DNA of 16,753 nt from contig SUPR01000075.1 of assembly GCA_005191425.1 (NCBI GenBank), positions 1-16,753 on the forward strand. Direction: 5' to 3'. Origin of the DNA: Candidatus Helarchaeota ASGARD archaeon Hel_GB_B (GTDB taxonomy: Archaea > Asgardarchaeota > Lokiarchaeia > Helarchaeales > HEL-GB-B). How positions within the stretch are numbered: position 1 is the first letter of the stretch; each line of letters opens with the position of its first letter. The notes under the pieces were generated by a model. It was given only the letters and a program-made list of their open reading frames with translations, had not been told where the DNA came from and searched no databases. Shown here piece after piece: positions 781 through 10,520 of this stretch. The position numbers and the translations under genes were made by a program.

Positions 781-2373
781 TCAAGTTGTTTTATTTTCCT
801 CTTTTTCTGGTGAAATATAAAATCCACTATCAGCTACAAAATTAGGGTCAAATTTTGTTTTTATTTTCCTTAGCCAGATATGATAATTAGAGCATTGTGG
901 TCCATACCAATCGTGCATTTTGTCGCCTTCGATAAAAAATGGTATTCCTAAATGTTCTACTAAGTCTAATTTATTACACCTGTCCAAATATTCAACAAAT
1001 CCCTCAACACTTTCAACTTTTGTCTGGTCATACATTGTAGGGGTTTCTATATGATAAAAGTGTCCATGTTCATAACTTGTTGACCAATTACCTTTTCCTT
1101 CATCGTTCCCAATGAGCCCTTTATCTATATATTCTTTTTTTAAGGGTAGATTTCGTTCCATTAATACTCTACACAATCTTGAGGTATCCATAGAACCATG
1201 AGTTGATTGGAAAGCACCAGTTGCCAAAAATCCATGCATTCCTAATGCACTTCTTAAGGCTTCAGCATAGGCAATATTTGGTGGAATATATTTTCCGGTA
1301 GCTACTACATCTTTAACTTTTAATTCTTCAATTGCTGTTTTTAGTACTTTTTCCTTATATTCAAATTCTCGTTTAGTATTTGCCGTTATGAGTACTACTA
1401 ATGGATTTTTAATTCTCGGACTCGCCACTGCCCTGTTCATTAACTCTTCTTGAGTATTTGAAAAAATTGTATGAAGCCCATAAGTGGAGGTATGAAAACA
1501 CATAAATGTAATCCCCTCTTTTTCGATACGGTCAAAAGCAAGTTCAAGAGTTTCATAATTTTTACAAGAAATTAAATGGAATTGCATATAATTTGGTATA
1601 TCGAAATCATAGTTTGGTATTATATTTTTTATTTCTAATTGTTTTATATTACAAGGAAATGGAAATAACTTAATTGCAACTCTAGTAAATATTCCCAATC
1701 CAGATTTGGTACCGATAAATCCTCTCATAATTCCACGTAAGCTTGGTCCCGGGCCATCACCATGAAACCAATCTGAATTTTCTTTTAATGATAATGAACC
1801 TAATCTTAGAATCTCTCCAGTAGGGAGTACCCATTCAGTTCCTAGAACATTACGTCCACTAAAACCTGTTGATGATGAAGTAAAACCCGGCCCACACATT
1901 GAAGTGGAACTTGCTAATGGCGATACTTGTGGTCCTGCGCCTGGCATATGGCAATTTAATCCATATTTTAATAGTTCGGCTTGTAATTGTGCACCAGTAA
2001 CATATGGTTCTACGACACAATACATATTTTTAGGGTCTATTTTGACAATTTTATTCATTCGACGCAAGTCTACTACAATAACATCATCTTCCGATGGTTG
2101 ATTCCATGGACCAAGTCCGGTGCTTTGTGCTTTAAATTTTAAGTGATATTTATTGCATAATTTTACGAATTTTTGAACTTCTTCTGTAGTAGATGGCAGT
2201 ACAACGGCAATTGGTTTATGCCAAAATGGTATCGGGTCCTTACCTTCCATTACATTGATAAATTCAACACACCAATTATATGTATATGATTCAAGGATAA
2301 CTTCATTGTCAGTTGCGTTTTCCTTACCTACGATATCTTGGATCTCGTTCAAGATTTTTTTATCTATTTTCAT
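781..2373 (-). CDS. FAD-binding oxidoreductase, VAO/PCMH/GlcD superfamily (FAD_binding_4 plus FAD-oxidase C-terminal domain); substrate unknown
   Basis: PIAVVLPSTTEEVQKFVKLCN, VDLRRMNKIVKIDPKNMYCVVEPYVT, VLGTEWVLPTGE.LRLG, GTKSGLGIFT, C-terminal KIKTKFDPNFV. Confidence 0.85.
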   Translation of the reverse strand: MKIDKKILNEIQDIVGKENATDNEVILESYTYNWCVEFINVMEGKDPIPFWHKPIAVVLPSTTEEVQKFVKLCNKYHLKFKAQSTGLGPWNQPSEDDVIVVDLRRMNKIVKIDPKNMYCVVEPYVTGAQLQAELLKYGLNCHMPGAGPQVSPLASSTSMCGPGFTSSSTGFSGRNVLGTEWVLPTGEILRLGSLSLKENSDWFHGDGPGPSLRGIMRGFIGTKSGLGIFTRVAIKLFPFPCNIKQLEIKNIIPNYDFDIPNYMQFHLISCKNYETLELAFDRIEKEGITFMCFHTSTYGLHTIFSNTQEELMNRAVASPRIKNPLVVLITANTKREFEYKEKVLKTAIEELKVKDVVATGKYIPPNIAYAEALRSALGMHGFLATGAFQSTHGSMDTSRLCRVLMERNLPLKKEYIDKGLIGNDEGKGNWSTSYEHGHFYHIETPTMYDQTKVESVEGFVEYLDRCNKLDLVEHLGIPFFIEGDKMHDWYGPQCSNYHIWLRKIKTKFDPNFVADSGFYISPEKEENKTT

Positions 2374-2375
2374 TA

Positions 2376-3650
2376 TTATTCCTCCTTATCCTCCAAACTT
2401 TTTAATAATAATTCGCTCAAGTCATAAAATTTTAATTTTGAGCCCGAATCGTCAATTGCGTCTTTTAAATTGGTCGCACAAAATGGGCAAGCAGAAATTA
2501 AAGATTCTGCTCCTGTGGATTCTGCTTCATCAATTCGATTTTTAGCGGCAAATAGAGCAAAATCCGGATATTGAGCTTTAACTCCGCCTCCAGCTCCACA
2601 GCAATATGAATATTCTTTTATTCGTTCCATTTCTACAAAGTCAATTCCAGGTATTTTTTTCAGTACATTTCTTGGGGGTTCGTATGTCCCATTTGTACCT
2701 CGTCTAAGGGGTTTTGGTGGCACTGGAATGGAAATAAGTGGCATCACTTCGACCATCTTACCATTCCATTCAGGATATGGCTCAGAATCACGTCCTAAAT
2801 GGCATGGATCATGATAAGTTACTTTAATTTTTAGATTCTCTTTTAATTTTAATTTACCTTCATCAATCAATCTATTAAATAATTCTGATGTGTGAGTCAC
2901 CTTGAAATTATATTTTCGATAACGTGGATAATGTGCTTTAAATGTAGAATAACACCCTGCGCAGCTAAATACCACTTCTTCAATTCCTAAACTTTCAATT
3001 AGGTCTAGATTATGGTTCATTAATTCCAATGCTTCCTTTTTCATACCTGTCCTTAGTAAAGGACTTCCACAGCACCATTCATCTGAGCCTAAAAGTTGAA
3101 ATTCGACCCCTGCTTTATTTAATATTTTTGCTGTCGCCTTTGCAATTTCTTTTCTTCTATAAGATGATGTACATCCCACGAAATAAGCAATTTTAGCATT
3201 TTTACTTATTTTTATATCTTCTGAAACCCAGTCCATTCTTTGTTCTGGTGGTTCGTTATATGGATTATGTTTTTCCATAGCATATTCTGCATATAATTTC
3301 TGTTTAGGCATAGGTCCTATACCTTTTTCGACTAACAATTCCCGTAATTCATATATTATTTCAAGAGGTTCTAGCTTATTAAGATATTTACATGAAATTG
3401 CGCACCCACCACATGTAGAACATTTGTATACGATATCTGCAAGATCTTCACTTGGTTCAAGTCTATTTAAATATATCGATAAAGCAAGGATAATTTTGCC
3501 TCCTCCTGAATAAGTATGATAATTGTAATAATCAATAGATGGACAAATAGAGGCATATTTTTGACTTTTTATTTGAATCTGAGGAATCCACTTACATAAC
3601 GAACATCTTAAACATTTTTTAATTGTATCTTCATAATCTTCAAATGGCAT
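2376..3650 (-). CDS. HdrD/GlcF-like Fe-S protein (two ferredoxin-type motifs plus two CCG domains)
   Basis: CLRCSLC...CP and CSTCGGCAISC; CCG-domain motifs YFVGC, WCCGSP, FSCAGC, YHDPCHLGR, YCCGAGGG, SACPFC. Confidence 0.92.
   Translation of the reverse strand: MPFEDYEDTIKKCLRCSLCKWIPQIQIKSQKYASICPSIDYYNYHTYSGGGKIILALSIYLNRLEPSEDLADIVYKCSTCGGCAISCKYLNKLEPLEIIYELRELLVEKGIGPMPKQKLYAEYAMEKHNPYNEPPEQRMDWVSEDIKISKNAKIAYFVGCTSSYRRKEIAKATAKILNKAGVEFQLLGSDEWCCGSPLLRTGMKKEALELMNHNLDLIESLGIEEVVFSCAGCYSTFKAHYPRYRKYNFKVTHTSELFNRLIDEGKLKLKENLKIKVTYHDPCHLGRDSEPYPEWNGKMVEVMPLISIPVPPKPLRRGTNGTYEPPRNVLKKIPGIDFVEMERIKEYSYCCGAGGGVKAQYPDFALFAAKNRIDEAESTGAESLISACPFCATNLKDAIDDSGSKLKFYDLSELLLKSLEDKEE
2381..2387 (-). 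promoter_or_regulatory. Shine-Dalgarno site (AAGGAGG) for the 781-2373 gene, embedded in the last codons of the upstream gene
   Basis: Minus strand reads AAGGAGG-AATAATA-ATG (ATG at 2373). The SD is formed by the K-E-E codons before the TAA at 2378-2376. Confidence 0.75.
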
Positions 3651-3655
3651 ATTTT

Positions 3656-5104
3656 TTATTCCTCCTTAAAACATAATGCACCCCTGTTCATTATATTATT
3701 TGGGTCAAAAATTTCTTTTACTCTCCTTAATGCACTTATCGTTTCATTTGAAACTCTTGCATACATTTCATCAGCCCATAAACCATAGGGACGGTTGAAA
3801 AATGCTCCAATATCCATTAATTTTTTACTTATTTCAAGAAATGATTTCTTAATACTTCCTTCATTAGTGTCTGCCGGATTATAATACAAATCAAATTCGC
3901 AATGGACACCGCACCCTTGATTAATCGGTTGAATATATACGCCTAATTCTAAATCAGTCATCTTACTTACTAAATTATAATGTAATACTGTATTATCGAG
4001 AGTTGTTAGATAAAAAATATCTTGAAAACCACCCTTATATTTTAACCTCCATGATTCTTCGCAAGTTTCATGTATAATTTCAAAAATCTTACTATTATCT
4101 ATATTACCTAATGTTTCTGTCAATTTTATATTATAATCATTTATTACATCGTTTATGTCTGCCAATATATATGAAATCCTATCTTCTCCAAACTGTCCCA
4201 TTCCAGTAAAGTTTGTTATTAAAATCCAGTCCTTTAAATTGCTTAAATTTGAAATATCCGTTCCAAGCAGTGCAGCGAGATTAACTTTATTGACAATAAA
4301 TACCTCATCTGCAGTCCGATACTTTATCAAATAACGCATAAAATCAAAAAAATCTTCAAAATTGTCCGATTGGGAAAACATAAGTTTCTCAGTATCATAT
4401 AAATATTCGCACTTTATTGTCGCCCATGTAACTACACCAAAACAACCTTGTGCCCCTTGAATAAGTCTATAGGGACTAAATTGTGTTGGACCCATTGGAT
4501 TTTTTTGAGCCTGCCCACTTTCAATTTGTTCTTCAATAGTGCCCGGGCCAGCAGCTATACCAGTTCTAAAGTAATCTCCAGTTCCAAATATTACTTCAGT
4601 ACATAGTAAAGGGTCTGAACTATCCCATTGAAATCTTGGGACAATTGGGGGTTCTCGTTCAAGGGCACTTGATAATACCGATTTTGATTTTCTTGGGAAT
4701 AATGGATTTAGTAATCGTAAACCATTTTTTCCTGCTACATCTATTAATTCACCAAAAGTAACGCCTGGTTCTACCATAATTACTCTATTTTTTTTATCAA
4801 TTCGTAATATTTTGTTCATTTTTGATAAATTCATTATTATTGTATTATCCGATTTTGGGACTGTATCTCCATGAAAACGATATTTATTTGGCGAACTTAT
4901 AGGAATAATTGAAATGTTATTTTGATTAGCTAATTTAATAATATCTTGTACTTGATCTGTATTTTCTGGAAAAACAACTAGCAAAGGCTTAATTGGATCA
5001 ACCAAACTTTGATCTTTTGAATATTTCTCAAGGACTTCTTGGCCATCATTAACATTTTCTATGCCACAAATCTCGATCAATTTCTTTTTTATTTGATTAT
5101 TCAT
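3656..5104 (-). CDS. FAD-binding oxidoreductase, VAO/PCMH/GlcD superfamily; divergent paralog of 781-2373
   Basis: PLLVVFPENTDQVQDIIKLAN, MNLSKMNKILRIDKKNRVIMVEPGVT, GAQGCFGVVTWATIK, C-terminal RRVKEIFDPNNIMNRG. Confidence 0.87.
   Translation of the reverse strand: MNNQIKKKLIEICGIENVNDGQEVLEKYSKDQSLVDPIKPLLVVFPENTDQVQDIIKLANQNNISIIPISSPNKYRFHGDTVPKSDNTIIMNLSKMNKILRIDKKNRVIMVEPGVTFGELIDVAGKNGLRLLNPLFPRKSKSVLSSALEREPPIVPRFQWDSSDPLLCTEVIFGTGDYFRTGIAAGPGTIEEQIESGQAQKNPMGPTQFSPYRLIQGAQGCFGVVTWATIKCEYLYDTEKLMFSQSDNFEDFFDFMRYLIKYRTADEVFIVNKVNLAALLGTDISNLSNLKDWILITNFTGMGQFGEDRISYILADINDVINDYNIKLTETLGNIDNSKIFEIIHETCEESWRLKYKGGFQDIFYLTTLDNTVLHYNLVSKMTDLELGVYIQPINQGCGVHCEFDLYYNPADTNEGSIKKSFLEISKKLMDIGAFFNRPYGLWADEMYARVSNETISALRRVKEIFDPNNIMNRGALCFKEE
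3661..3667 (-). promoter_or_regulatory. Shine-Dalgarno site (AAGGAGG) for the 2376-3650 gene, embedded in the last codons of the upstream gene
   Basis: Minus strand reads AAGGAGG-AATAAAAAAT-ATG (ATG at 3650). The SD is again formed by K-E-E codons. Confidence 0.72.
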
Positions 5105-8099: not shown

Positions 8100-9719
8100 T
8101 TAATGAGAATAAATATCTTCTTGTTTTTCCAAATCTTTAAATGAATTTACAACGTTGTCCGGATCTCCTATTTTTACTATTTTTCCTTGTTTCATAAGTG
8201 CGCACCGGTCACAGACAGCTGTCATAAAGTCTATGTCATGCGAAATTATAAAATATGTTTGGTGTAAATTTTTCCGAGCTTTTTTTATACTTTGGACTAT
8301 TTCCAACCGTGTCAATGGGTCTGCAGTCCCTGTTGGTTCGTCCAAGACTATTATTCGGGGCTCTTTTATAAAAACTCTAGCAATTGCAACTCTATGTCTT
8401 TCTCCCTCACTAATTTGATCTGGAAATTTATAGATTAGGTTGTCTATTTCTTTATTATTAAAGTTAACTGCTCTTAATGCTTCATATGCCTTTTTTGTTT
8501 TCATTTCTTCAGGCATAGGTGATTCTATAGCACCTATCAAATTGTCTAACACTGTTAAATGAGAAATTAGGCAATATTCTTGGTGGAGGATCTCCATATA
8601 TTTTGTTGCTCGCCCTCGTTCCTCAGGTCCGGGGACGCTCATATCAATCCATTCGTCTCCAATTTTTACAATAATTTTTCCCTTGGTGATCTTTTTCTCA
8701 CCGATCATCATCTGGACTAGTGACGTCTTTCCTGCTCCACTAACTCCAACTAATCCAAATATTTCTCCCTCATTTACATTAAATGAAACATCGTTCACAG
8801 CTCTAACAAGTCCACGGTCGTGCGTATAATATGTTTTCTTACAATTTTCAATTTTAATCAATGGTTTTGTGCAAACTTCTCTCTCAATTTCAATTTCACC
8901 CATTTTTGCCATAAATTCCGCTGCTATATCTTTTGATTTACCGATAGAAACCATTTCACCCATATCTAACAAAATTGCCTGGTCAGAAAGTTCAGCAACA
9001 GCAGCAGGCCAATGACTTGTAATTAATAGTGTTAGACCTTTTTCTTCTACAGATTTTTTCATGACATCATGAACGGTAACCGCTGTAACAGGATCTAAAG
9101 TACCAGATGGTTCATCAGCTATAAAAAGTAATGGGTCTTTAGCTAAACACATTGCAAAAACTGCTCTTTGCTTTTCACCGCCAGACAAATCTCGGGCTAA
9201 ATGCATTGCTCTATGACTAAGTCTAACATCTGACAAAAGCTGTAATGCTCTTTTATTAATGAGTTTATCTGGATAGTTTATATTTTTTAGTATTTTTTGG
9301 ATATTTGTAATTACGGGAAGTTCTCCATAAATACCAAAAGTTCTTTGAAACATAATAGCAATCCTGTTATATAGCGAGAAAGATATTGGAGTTAAATTTT
9401 TTCGTTCCTTCCAGTAGTCAATCTCTCTAAATTCTAATGTGCTTCCGCATTTATCACAGACTTCTCCTGCTTTACTGGGGTATTCTATCCAATTACAATT
9501 TGGACAGACTGCAACATTATAAATTACGCTTCCTGTCAGTGGGGCATGGTCTTTAGTACCCCGAATACAATTCATTAAAACAGATTTTCCTGAACCCGAT
9601 TTGCCTAATATTCCAAATGAAGCACCCTCATTTACTTCAAAATTGATTTGTTTGATGGCGGGTTCTCCTCGTACAAATTCTACTGATAAATCTCGTACTA
9701 TTAAAAACGGTCTGCCCAT
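8100..9719 (-). CDS. atwA: Methyl/alkyl-coenzyme M reductase system component A2 (AtwA-like double ABC ATPase with Zn-binding insert)
   Basis: Two ABC cassettes (GKSGSGKS/LSGGEKQR/IADEPSG and GVSGAGKT/ISEGERHR/VLDEPTG). The first cassette carries the insert YNVAVCPNC.WIEYPS..GEVCDKCG...IDYW, which I recognise as typical of component A2. No TM segments. ATG 9719 is preferred over the ORF-track TTG 9731. Confidence 0.85.
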   Translation of the reverse strand: MGRPFLIVRDLSVEFVRGEPAIKQINFEVNEGASFGILGKSGSGKSVLMNCIRGTKDHAPLTGSVIYNVAVCPNCNWIEYPSKAGEVCDKCGSTLEFREIDYWKERKNLTPISFSLYNRIAIMFQRTFGIYGELPVITNIQKILKNINYPDKLINKRALQLLSDVRLSHRAMHLARDLSGGEKQRAVFAMCLAKDPLLFIADEPSGTLDPVTAVTVHDVMKKSVEEKGLTLLITSHWPAAVAELSDQAILLDMGEMVSIGKSKDIAAEFMAKMGEIEIEREVCTKPLIKIENCKKTYYTHDRGLVRAVNDVSFNVNEGEIFGLVGVSGAGKTSLVQMMIGEKKITKGKIIVKIGDEWIDMSVPGPEERGRATKYMEILHQEYCLISHLTVLDNLIGAIESPMPEEMKTKKAYEALRAVNFNNKEIDNLIYKFPDQISEGERHRVAIARVFIKEPRIIVLDEPTGTADPLTRLEIVQSIKKARKNLHQTYFIISHDIDFMTAVCDRCALMKQGKIVKIGDPDNVVNSFKDLEKQEDIYSH

Positions 9720-9947
9720 ATTATCACACAAACAGATTATATTAAATTATTAATTTAATTTACTAAAAAGTTTTTCTTAAAAAAAATTTGGATATCACTA
9801 AATAAATTATCAATAAAAATATATTGAGTATTTAAGACCTTTTTCGTTTAAAATCTAATATATTAAAAATAAAATGAAAATTTAATTTATCATAATTATT
9901 TTTTGATGTCGAAAACAAATTATATAATATTATAAAATAGATTAATT

Positions 9948-10520
9948 TTATTTCGCACCATTTTTCTTTAATAAATTTACAATATTTTGATGATTAGAAG
10001 TAGATGCAAATTTTAATGCAGTAAAACCTGTTATTGTTTCTGCATATACATCAGCACCATTTTCAATAAGAAGTTTTACAATATCTTTAAACCCTCTCCA
10101 AGCAGCATACATTAAATTTGTCATATTATTTGTACCTTTAAAATTCATATCAGCACCACTTTCAATTGCCAATTTTGCAATTTCAAGCGACCCATTATCA
10201 CATGCGAACATTAATACCGAATCTTTATCATAAAATGATGCACCATTTTCCATTAAAACTTTTGCAGAACTTATATTTCCATTTTTGCATGCATAATCCA
10301 ATGCAGTATAATCTGAATTACTTATTTTATTTAAATCTGCCTTTGAAGCAATTAATATAACTATTATTTCGTCATGCCCTTGATATGCAGCATACATTAA
10401 CGCAGTGTGGCCATCTTCATCGCTATAATTAACATCTGCACCTTCACCTATGGCAAAAATTACTCCTTGAACATCTCCCGCTTTAGAAGCTTCAATTAAT
10501 TTTTCATTAATATTTTGCAT
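9948..10520 (-). CDS. Ankyrin repeat protein (about six repeats including caps)
   Basis: Repeats of [G/D/N]xT[A/N]L.YA...G...I.k.L...GAD.N, e.g. GHTALMYAAYQGH, DYTALDYACKNGN, NMTNLMYAAWRGF, GFTALKFAS. No other domain. Confidence 0.95.
   Translation of the reverse strand: MQNINEKLIEASKAGDVQGVIFAIGEGADVNYSDEDGHTALMYAAYQGHDEIIVILIASKADLNKISNSDYTALDYACKNGNISSAKVLMENGASFYDKDSVLMFACDNGSLEIAKLAIESGADMNFKGTNNMTNLMYAAWRGFKDIVKLLIENGADVYAETITGFTALKFASTSNHQNIVNLLKKNGAK

Follow-up and report, generated by a model that had tools for sequence, protein, structure and literature searches.

A component A2 (AtwA) kept beside a divergent MCR-like enzyme in a Helarchaeales archaeon where the other known helper genes are not detected

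The atwA gene of the analysed window, which is the entire 16,753-nucleotide contig C157 of the Candidatus Helarchaeota archaeon Hel_GB_B assembly (genome G000), encodes a true component A2 of the MCR system, as judged from sequence, motifs, fold and phylogeny. With a probability of roughly 0.7 it is a functional A2 of the ACR branch and the dedicated partner of the divergent MCR-like enzyme encoded on contig C103 of the same genome. The identity of the protein family was known already, NCBI and JGI label it as A2 in Helarchaeota MAGs. The new element is the setting, in which A2 and an MCR-like enzyme are kept without detectable copies of the other known helper genes.

The open reading frame occupies positions 8100-9731 of the minus strand and codes for 543 amino acids when read from a TTG start. 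In the alignment the orthologues start near M5, thus the likely coding sequence is 8100-9719, with the ATG at 9719 as the probable start and a product of 539 amino acids. The original prediction that this product is AtwA was borne out when the protein was scored against TIGR03269: it reached 678.6 bits (equivalog cutoff 517.1), while the next ABC family gave 230 bits, and it was the single A2 above the cutoff amid the 40 ABC-type matches of the genome. Chain K of PDB 8s7v was matched over the full length (513 bits, residues 24-540, 45% identity). The same chain was the top Foldseek match of the AF2 model (pLDDT 88.6), with TM values of 0.88/0.91 and an rmsd of 2.8 Å over 526 columns (E = 2e-60); the next match, DppD, followed at E = 4e-35 and EttA was also far poorer than A2. 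When the tree was rooted on double-ABC proteins devoid of the zinc motif, the protein was placed apart from these, inside the A2 clade, the ACR-type sub-clade and the A2 type named here after the window, each with 100/100 support.

The double-ABC architecture with a CPxC...CxxC insert and a second signature SEGERHR had been noticed before, and the coordinates of these elements, all on the minus strand, were verified. In nucleotide-binding domain 1, the Walker A motif GKSGSGKS is found at 9582..9605, its Lys being invariant in 62 A2 sequences, and the zinc-binding motif of the insert at 9447..9506, an exact CXXC-X12-CXXC (C76-PN-C79, 12 residues, C92-DK-C95) with all four Cys invariant in the same 62 sequences. 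The other ABC motifs were located by alignment and their coordinates checked: the first signature, LSGGEKQR (9165..9188), and Walker B with the catalytic Glu, LLFIADE (9111..9131), in domain 1; Walker A, GVSGAGKT (8724..8747), the A2-typical signature, SEGERHR (8391..8411), and Walker B with the catalytic Glu, IIVLDE (8337..8354), in domain 2. Walker A, Q-loop, signature, Walker B and H-loop are thus intact in both domains, and these sites are invariant or nearly so among the 62 sequences. [quoted passage not shown]

The genome carries its sole mcrBGA set on C103, in the order mcrB-mcrG-mcrA-SCP2, and its McrA, McrB and McrG matches are confined to that contig. In relatives the orthologues of the window AtwA stand fifth in the cluster mcrB-mcrG-mcrA-SCP2-atwA: A2 of the window's type directly follows mcrBGA-SCP2 in two genomes (G002:C15 and G006:C27) and on five metagenome contigs (L146, L148, L149, L156, L160), and at least three sub-lineages keep the five-gene set. 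A sample of 400 genomes of the phylum contained AtwA in seven and McrG in those same seven, which are all the Helarchaeales of the sample. Of the three AtwA types present in this order, that of the window is always paired with the divergent-pocket MCR-like enzyme. The pocket of this McrA is heavily rewritten and variable among the copies; in G000 the F430 axial-ligand position is occupied by Leu (Gln in the sister species G004) and the coenzyme-contact motif is rewritten. The search of the parent genome for mcrABG thus had a positive outcome, and the host proposed earlier, an Asgard archaeon of the Helarchaeales bearing MCR-like genes, is upheld by the shared occurrence of AtwA and McrG and by the presence of Hel_GB_A (G003) in the same order. 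Since there is one divergent MCR-like operon in the genome and the relatives keep the gene in-operon, this AtwA is not an orphan. The earlier reading therefore stands for the A2 identity and the host and falls for the alternative of an orphan AtwA with another client. Alkane oxidation by the host is unproven. Its MCR-like enzyme has the axial Leu and the rewritten motif, CfbD and CfbE were not detected, and the eight other helper genes are missing at family level.

There is no mcr gene on C157, where the neighbours of atwA (fibrillarin, FtsZ, Spt5, a small GTPase and an ankyrin protein) are archaeal and Asgard-like, as the original prediction of an Asgard-like context without nearby mcr genes had it. 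The gene lies between ftsZ, with the ankyrin gene in between, and the small GTPase gene, and the same layout is found in G004, L145 and L157. In the window's genus atwA has been relocated out of the mcr-like cluster to the side of ftsZ. The intergenic region upstream of it (9732..9947, minus strand) reads as AT-rich, has TATA-like runs lying 20-45 nt ahead of the probable start codon at 9719, and is probably atwA's own promoter. A sigma-70 promoter scan returned fewer sites than shuffled sequences, this model being inapplicable to archaea. The composition of both C157 and C103 agrees with the rest of the genome. The unlinked position of atwA in this genome counts against the partner assignment.

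Other genes around the two loci were also inspected. In G000 no QueG-like Fe-S protein was found in the two places checked, adjoining atwA and downstream of SCP2; the latter position holds a sugar-nucleotide enzyme fusion. B12 radical-SAM genes lie near both atwA and the mcr-like operon, and a link between them was rejected: the two share 24% identity, both have numerous further matches in the genome, and the contexts of the relatives retain neither. A corrinoid protein and a URO-D gene follow the in-operon atwA of relatives, and G000 has only distant paralogues of them (33-39% and 22% identity, respectively).

The gene content of the activation machinery was compared for the three species that have only the window-type A2 and the divergent enzyme (G000, G004 and G006; MAGs of 93-94% completeness). 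McrC, Mmp7, Mmp17 and Mmp3 gave no match at E <= 0.01 in any of them, while the control genomes were positive as expected. Mmp5, Mmp6 and McrD had no match either, and Mmp15 only sub-cutoff ones. When the Helarchaeales' own proteins were used as tblastn queries against G000, the missing helpers were not found even as fragments; an Mmp7-like match on C128 (E = 0.005) proved to be a protein-isoaspartate methyltransferase (PCMT). A2 is thus the sole detectable member of the nine known MCR helper genes, the eight others missing at family level. By comparison, McrC, Mmp7 and Mmp17 occur in all four typical-ACR genomes and Mmp3 in three of them, the exception being G003, which has typical ACRs, is 82% complete and lacks the Mmp3 cluster. 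Mmp5 and Mmp6 likewise occur among the typical-ACR genomes. McrC and Mmp7 were also found in 5/5 A2-bearing genomes outside Asgard, a 1.2-Mb Hadesarchaea MAG included. The joint absence of the helpers coincides exactly with a lack of typical ACR operons and of both further A2 types. In relatives the helper genes are grouped as Mmp15-Mmp17-Mmp7-A2-McrD-McrC and as Mmp3-Mmp6-Mmp5, so each genome should be counted as lacking about two independent loci instead of eight. All genomes being MAGs, the absence of the helpers in these three species is probable and not proven. CfbD and CfbE were not found in G000, and are missing too from three of the four typical-ACR genomes. The search for cfb and further marker genes, which had been suggested together with the prediction, has turned out to be the most telling.

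Comparison of atwA between G000 and G004 gave a pN of 0.065 and a pS of 0.82, which are reported separately and not as a dN/dS ratio because the synonymous sites are saturated. The identity of AtwA, 91%, is higher than that of SCP2 (85%), McrB (85%), McrG (84%) and McrA (75%). The substitution values and this high conservation indicate that atwA is under strong purifying selection. Its branch is 0.22 long, those of the in-operon copies 0.17 and 0.21, and it shows no acceleration. The presence and conservation of the gene raise the odds of a working MCR-like enzyme serviced by ATP, as opposed to a relic.

By analogy with the M. maripaludis complex and with A2 biochemistry, ATP-bound A2 would bind the MCR-like hexamer at its McrG face and help to hold the N-terminal latch of McrA, and contact-triggered ATP hydrolysis would then power a conformational change by which the enzyme is matured or activated. 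In this lineage the remodelling would proceed without McrC, Mmp7, Mmp17 and Mmp3, which make up the Fe-S electron path of the known complex. Since none of these was detected, either another reductant may be used, or the purpose of the remodelling may not be Ni(II)-to-Ni(I) reduction. The pattern hints that A2 is able to act apart from the remaining activation machinery. More tentatively, it may be proposed that in the three A2-only species the enzyme, its own A2 and the SCP2-like partner have remained under selection after the loss of McrC, McrD and Mmp3/5/6/7/15/17, and that ATP-driven remodelling has a role of its own, apart from the module that delivers electrons through Fe-S clusters. One candidate role would be to open the McrA latch, together with the SCP2-like protein, so that cofactor or a bulky lipid substrate can be loaded; another would be coupling to an as yet unrecognised reductant.

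These observations might also be explained by an ordinary, complete MCR/ACR activation system, whose McrC and Mmp genes were left unassembled or unbinned and whose A2 works as in methanogens. The MAGs are only 93-94% complete, with the missing genes in two clusters few losses would be needed, and the typical-ACR genome G003, at 82% completeness, is also without the Mmp3 cluster. This explanation is nevertheless unlikely. Three species of two families, each assembled separately, show the same full absence, and it tracks exactly the lack of both the typical ACR operons and the two further A2 types; McrC, Mmp7 and Mmp17 are present in every typical-ACR genome, tblastn gave no fragments with Helarchaeales queries, and even the 1.2-Mb Hadesarchaea MAG has McrC and Mmp7. 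As for a mistaken assignment, Pfam does give only the general ABC_tran domain in a genome with 40 ABC-type matches, but a generic ABC transporter or ABC-F ATPase can practically be dismissed in view of the 678.6 bits for the A2 equivalog against at most 230 for any transporter family, the zinc motif, a fold far closer to A2 than to DppD or EttA, and the 100/100 support of the A2 clade.

That atwA is unlinked from mcr, in a layout with ftsZ and the small GTPase gene conserved in G004, L145 and L157, could suggest that after leaving the operon A2 was repurposed for a new client, tied for instance to one of these two neighbours. We consider this quite improbable, since A2 and the MCR-like enzyme co-occur perfectly across the 400 genomes of the phylum, the nearest relatives of the window A2 remain in-operon, its branch is about as long as theirs (0.22 vs 0.17 and 0.21), and the McrA-latch patch and the zinc motif are retained. 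It is still harder to regard A2 and the MCR-like operon as decaying, non-functional leftovers of a lost alkane metabolism. The McrA pocket, heavily rewritten and differing among copies, and the failure to find F430-synthesis and other helper genes would fit such a remnant; the reading frames are intact, however, pN is 0.065 with synonymous sites saturated, all catalytic residues invariant in the 62 sequences are retained and the five-gene set persists in at least three sub-lineages. A functional A2 dedicated to the C103 enzyme remains the preferred reading.

How MCR is switched on has been a long-standing gap, recently addressed by the structure of the activation complex in 2025 (PMC12176620) and by A2 biochemistry in 2026 (bioRxiv 10.64898/2026.03.18.712670). 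In those systems A2 is inseparable from the Fe-S subunits for study, while a lineage in which A2 and an MCR-like client are kept and the rest of the helpers are missing provides a two-part minimal system in which A2's own function can be probed. For ecology, the case is a warning that in Asgard MAGs atwA by itself should not be taken to mark canonical alkane or methane metabolism.

In the M. maripaludis MCR activation complex A2 is chain K of PDB 8S7V/9H1L (Ramirez-Amador et al. 2025, PMC12176620). The window protein, at 45% identity, resembles it in its two antiparallel ABC domains, the Zn-binding loop of domain 1, the set of motifs and the P396/F399-aligned patch, here P-x-x-M. The M. maripaludis A2 works with McrC, Mmp7, Mmp17 and Mmp3, proteins that contain three [8Fe-9S-C]-like clusters, whereas none of these proteins is detectable in G000, and the presumed client of the window A2 is, unlike that of M. 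maripaludis, a divergent MCR-like enzyme whose axial-ligand position is Leu. The A2 of Methanosarcina acetivorans was studied by Adler and Nayak (2026), whose preprint (bioRxiv 10.64898/2026.03.18.712670) describes an assay of anaerobic ATPase activity stimulated by MCR binding, and the window protein shares with this A2 the CXXCX12CXXC motif and both nucleotide-binding domains. According to the preprint, this motif separates A2 from a zinc-less double-ABC paralogue, the MA_3967 type of M. acetivorans, which served as outgroup. The paralogue has the tandem ABC architecture and a length similar to that of the window A2; it has no Cys4 insert, and its representatives match in pieces, at no more than 255 bits, and fall outside the A2 clade. 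The Cys4 insert, the score and the tree position thus rule out that the window protein is of this type. The preprint calls A2 universal among archaea that have MCR or related enzymes, and the parts of it consulted contain no description of lineages that retain A2 without the other activation genes.

Within the Helarchaeales, the typical ACR cluster is mcrA-atwA-SCP2-mcrB-mcrG (e.g. contig C94 of Hel_GB_A), and another A2 type adjoins Mmp7/Mmp17/McrC (e.g. SUPS01000198.1 of Hel_GB_A). The window A2 is 56-62% identical to the other two types and forms one clade with them (87/92 for Helarchaeales), and its pairing with an SCP2-like gene is shared with the typical ACR clusters. The other two types accompany ACRs with the axial Gln and YMSGG(V/I/L)GF, and are found only in genomes with McrC, Mmp7 and Mmp17 (Mmp3 in 3/4), while the window type accompanies the rewritten-pocket enzyme and persists without the helpers. 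The existence of three A2 types, each tied to its own gene set, fits the picture given by Adler and Nayak that A2 co-evolves with its MCR/ACR partner and that two enzyme types go with two A2s.

The atwA gene is one open frame of 543 aa (minus strand, 8100-9731); since its orthologues start a few residues later, the ATG at 9719 is the probable start in the orthologue alignment and would give a protein of 539 aa. The product has two ABC domains with a complete set of catalytic motifs (coordinates verified), an insert after the first Walker A consisting of C-PN-C, 12 residues and C-DK-C, and SEGERHR as the second signature. Its score against the component A2 equivalog TIGR03269 was 678.6 bits (cutoff 517.1), the best transporter family reaching 230 bits. 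The top solved relative, at 513 bits across residues 24-540, was A2 from the M. maripaludis MCR activation complex (PMC12176620), chain K of 8S7V/9H1L. The AlphaFold2 model (pLDDT 88.6, pTM 0.77) matched 8S7V chain K with TM scores of 0.88/0.91 and E = 2e-60, followed by DppD with E = 4e-35. According to a preprint, a CXXCX12CXXC zinc motif separates A2 from a zinc-less paralogue (bioRxiv 10.64898/2026.03.18.712670), and, in contrast to that paralogue, the insert of the window's protein matches the A2 motif exactly. The four Cys, both Walker A Lys, both Walker B Asp-Glu pairs and the Q- and H-loops were invariant or nearly so in 62 diverse A2 sequences and are all retained here. The original prediction, that this double-ABC ATPase with a Cys insert and SEGERHR is AtwA, was thus borne out by family score, motifs and fold, and the gene is a real, correctly identified A2 of a Helarchaeales genome. 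The gene call itself is not new: NCBI and JGI annotate the protein and its relatives in Helarchaeota MAGs as 'MCR system component A2'. A 591-aa open frame on another contig of this genome (C20, 7830-9530) matched TIGR03269 only piecewise (best 134 bits) and may be a zinc-less double-ABC paralogue of A2.

The host MAG, G000 (3.54 Mb, 182 contigs, 93.7% complete, 4.9% contaminated; the window is all of contig C157), belongs to an order of 7 species-representative genomes. One of these, G003, is Ca. Helarchaeota Hel_GB_A, as identity across 3,283 nt indicated, and its family differs from that of the host, which is therefore a Helarchaeales archaeon of another family. Contig C103 of G000 carries four consecutive genes: mcrB (382 bits, under the canonical cutoff), mcrG (236 bits, over its cutoff), mcrA (362 bits, far under the cutoff of 768; ORF of 607 aa) and an SCP2-like gene. 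The tetranucleotide composition of both contigs fits the genome (r = 0.997 for C157 and 0.999 for C103). Among 400 genomes sampled from the phylum, over-cutoff AtwA and McrG occurred in the same 7, namely all 7 Helarchaeales. Because of this co-occurrence and the genes on C103, the suggestion of an orphan AtwA in an mcr-less genome is refuted; the host is one of the MCR-like-bearing Helarchaeales. Two further A2 sequences, on a contig deposited as 'Bacteroidaceae bacterium' (L076, CAVDAS010000010.1; 48% identical to the window's protein) and in protein P0181, deposited as 'Candidatus Deferrimicrobium sp.' (62%), probably come from mis-binned archaeal contigs.

The 7 genomes contain 12 A2 genes of three types. 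The window's type (identity to the window's protein 91% in G004, 72% in the G002 copy G002c and 69% in G006) is the fifth gene of mcrB-mcrG-mcrA-SCP2-atwA, and directly follows mcrBGA-SCP2 in G002 (C15), G006 (C27) and metagenome contigs L146, L148, L149, L156 and L160. The second type (56-60%) belongs to mcrA-atwA-SCP2-mcrB-mcrG, and the third (60-62%) adjoins Mmp15-Mmp17-Mmp7, McrD and McrC; the third presumably serves the mcrBGA-SCP2 ACR operons that have no atwA of their own (G005:C3, G001:C138, G003:C8). The contigs of the matching operon in G001 and G004 (C97) stop immediately past SCP2. The G004 atwA is on C335, where a small GTPase gene is next after it, as in the window; ftsZ is on the other side of atwA in metagenome contigs L145 (99% identity) and L157 (85%), and a 217-nt AT-rich spacer with TATA-like runs precedes the window's atwA. 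Set against the in-operon relatives, the layouts of the window, G004, L145 and L157 show that atwA left the operon in the ancestor of the host's genus or family. An ankyrin-repeat gene (9948-10520) separates ftsZ and atwA in the window and reads as two ORFs in L145 owing to a 1-nt indel; since none was detected in the ~445-nt ftsZ-atwA gap of L157, the gene is an insertion that varies at this position. A cassette at 781-5104, 3 kb from atwA, encodes, in this order, a GlcD-like FAD-oxidase, an HdrD- or TfrB-like CCG iron-sulfur protein and a further FAD-oxidase. In principle, a CoM-CoB-type heterodisulfide might be a substrate of the HdrD-like protein; no linkage of the cassette to atwA or the mcr-like operon was found.

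The enzyme that goes with the window's A2 type is divergent. Both the axial Gln (GGAV-x-QEHM) and YMSGG(V/I/L)GF are kept in methanogen McrA and in the McrAs that accompany the second and third A2 types. Of the 9 McrA chains that accompany the window's type, all have the latter motif rewritten and 8 have Leu as the axial residue. In the F430 axial-ligand column of the alignment G000 (C103, L060) reads AGGTVSLDQ, with Leu, and its sister G004 (C97, L059) AGGIVLQEQ, with Gln; the Gln-to-Leu change has thus not reached fixation even among the species of this genus. Lemaire and Wagner had already pointed out Helarchaeota/Lokiarchaeota sequences that carry such a Leu along with drastic substitutions (PMC9118554). 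A2 is the most conserved member of this set and McrA the least conserved subunit: identities to G000, taken against G002 (G001 for McrB) and G006, were 72 and 69% for A2, 67 and 68% for SCP2, 69 and 55% for McrG, 59 and 53% for McrB, and 53 and 44% for McrA. The atwA gene is under strong purifying selection, with a pN of 0.065 and saturated synonymous sites (pS 0.82) between G000 and G004, and the tree branch of the window's A2 was not accelerated relative to the in-operon copies. Immediately before mcrB, in the same orientation, is a ~231-aa gene without a Pfam match (G000:C103:26575-27267; 6576-7268 in L060); six of the eight loci with this type of operon have it (those of G000, G004 and G001 and three on metagenome contigs). 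In-operon atwA of the window's type is followed by genes for a corrinoid-binding protein (B12-binding_2 + B12-binding) and a URO-D-family protein (4551-6294 in L055, from G002:C15; 10388-12151 in L148; 10632-11682 in L149). The MtaA/MtbA methylcobamide:CoM methyltransferases belong to the URO-D family, and this arrangement hints at a remaining link between the divergent operon and CoM-thioether chemistry. The G000 counterparts of both proteins are distant paralogues only.

Helper genes were scored by family-level matches in the 7 genomes, McrD-like and Mmp15 in five of them (G000, G004, G006, G002, G005). The genomes with the rewritten-pocket enzyme only, G000 and G004 (family f1) and G006 (f3), have exactly one A2 and one McrG each, and McrC, Mmp7, Mmp17, Mmp3, Mmp5/6, McrD-like, Mmp15 and CfbD/E were all undetected, Mmp15 giving sub-cutoff matches only (~135-141 bits vs 455.75). 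McrC, Mmp7 and Mmp17 are present in every typical-ACR genome: G001 (f2; two A2, four McrG) also has Mmp3 and Mmp5/6, as does G002 (f2; three A2, two McrG), which has McrD-like and Mmp15 in addition; G003 (f2; two of each) has neither Mmp3 nor Mmp5/6, probably explained by its 82% completeness; and G005 (f3; two A2, three McrG) has the whole set with CfbD/E. The McrD-like matches of G002 and G005 were also under the family cutoff. Since three of these four genomes are without CfbD/E, the absence of the latter is non-discriminating. A tblastn search of the whole G000 assembly with Helarchaeales McrC, Mmp7, Mmp17, Mmp3, CfbD and CfbE found nothing; one marginal match was a PCMT methyltransferase. 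McrC and Mmp7 were both present in 5 of 5 A2-bearing non-Asgard genomes (Hadesarchaea, Halobacteriota, Bathyarchaeota, Methanolliviera, Nitrososphaerota), one a 1.2-Mb MAG, McrC being in two adjacent pieces in the Bathyarchaeota genome. In typical-ACR Helarchaeales these genes are grouped as Mmp15-Mmp17-Mmp7-(A2)-McrD-McrC and Mmp3-Mmp6-Mmp5 (G002:C247:3890-18957 and G002:C115:9005-11447), two clusters in all, so the absences, as read from MAGs, correspond to about two independent loci per genome. A2 is thus the last detectable MCR helper in G000, attached to a divergent MCR-like enzyme; the setting is unusual and the gene ordinary. In the literature searched we found no description of Helarchaeales keeping A2 without the other activation genes.

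In canonical systems A2 with ATP bound occupies the back of MCR and makes electrostatic contact with McrG, without touching the other activation subunits (PMC12176620; bioRxiv 10.64898/2026.03.18.712670), and A2 and Mmp3 hold the unfolded McrA N-terminal helix via P396/F399 (PMC12176620). According to the preprint, A2 hydrolyses ATP only upon MCR contact under anoxic conditions. The patch aligned with P396/F399 is P-E-E-M in the window's protein, P-x-x-hydrophobic being common to all three Helarchaeales types. The window's A2 would accordingly be expected to bind the C103 enzyme at the gamma-subunit face and to remodel it with the help of ATP. Since the Fe-S path (McrC, Mmp7, Mmp17, Mmp3) is missing, remodelling would couple to another reductant or serve another step, possibly latch opening for loading of the cofactor or a bulky substrate. 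In two operon types atwA is always accompanied by an SCP2-like gene, a suggestive association though not proof of how the two would work.

In the tree, the A2s of ACR-bearing archaea (Syntrophoarchaeum/Alkanophaga, Hadesarchaea/Bathyarchaeota BA2/Methanoliparia and Helarchaeales) form a 100/100 clade separate from methanogen A2s, within which the window's type is itself a 100/100 clade of three sub-lineages; the phylogeny proposed as a check on AtwA identity therefore agrees with it. Unlike A2 of the canonical activation complex, that of G000 stands without detectable McrC, Mmp7, Mmp17 and Mmp3, and the grouping in the tree is in agreement with the co-evolution of A2 and its enzyme partner described in the preprint (bioRxiv 10.64898/2026.03.18.712670).
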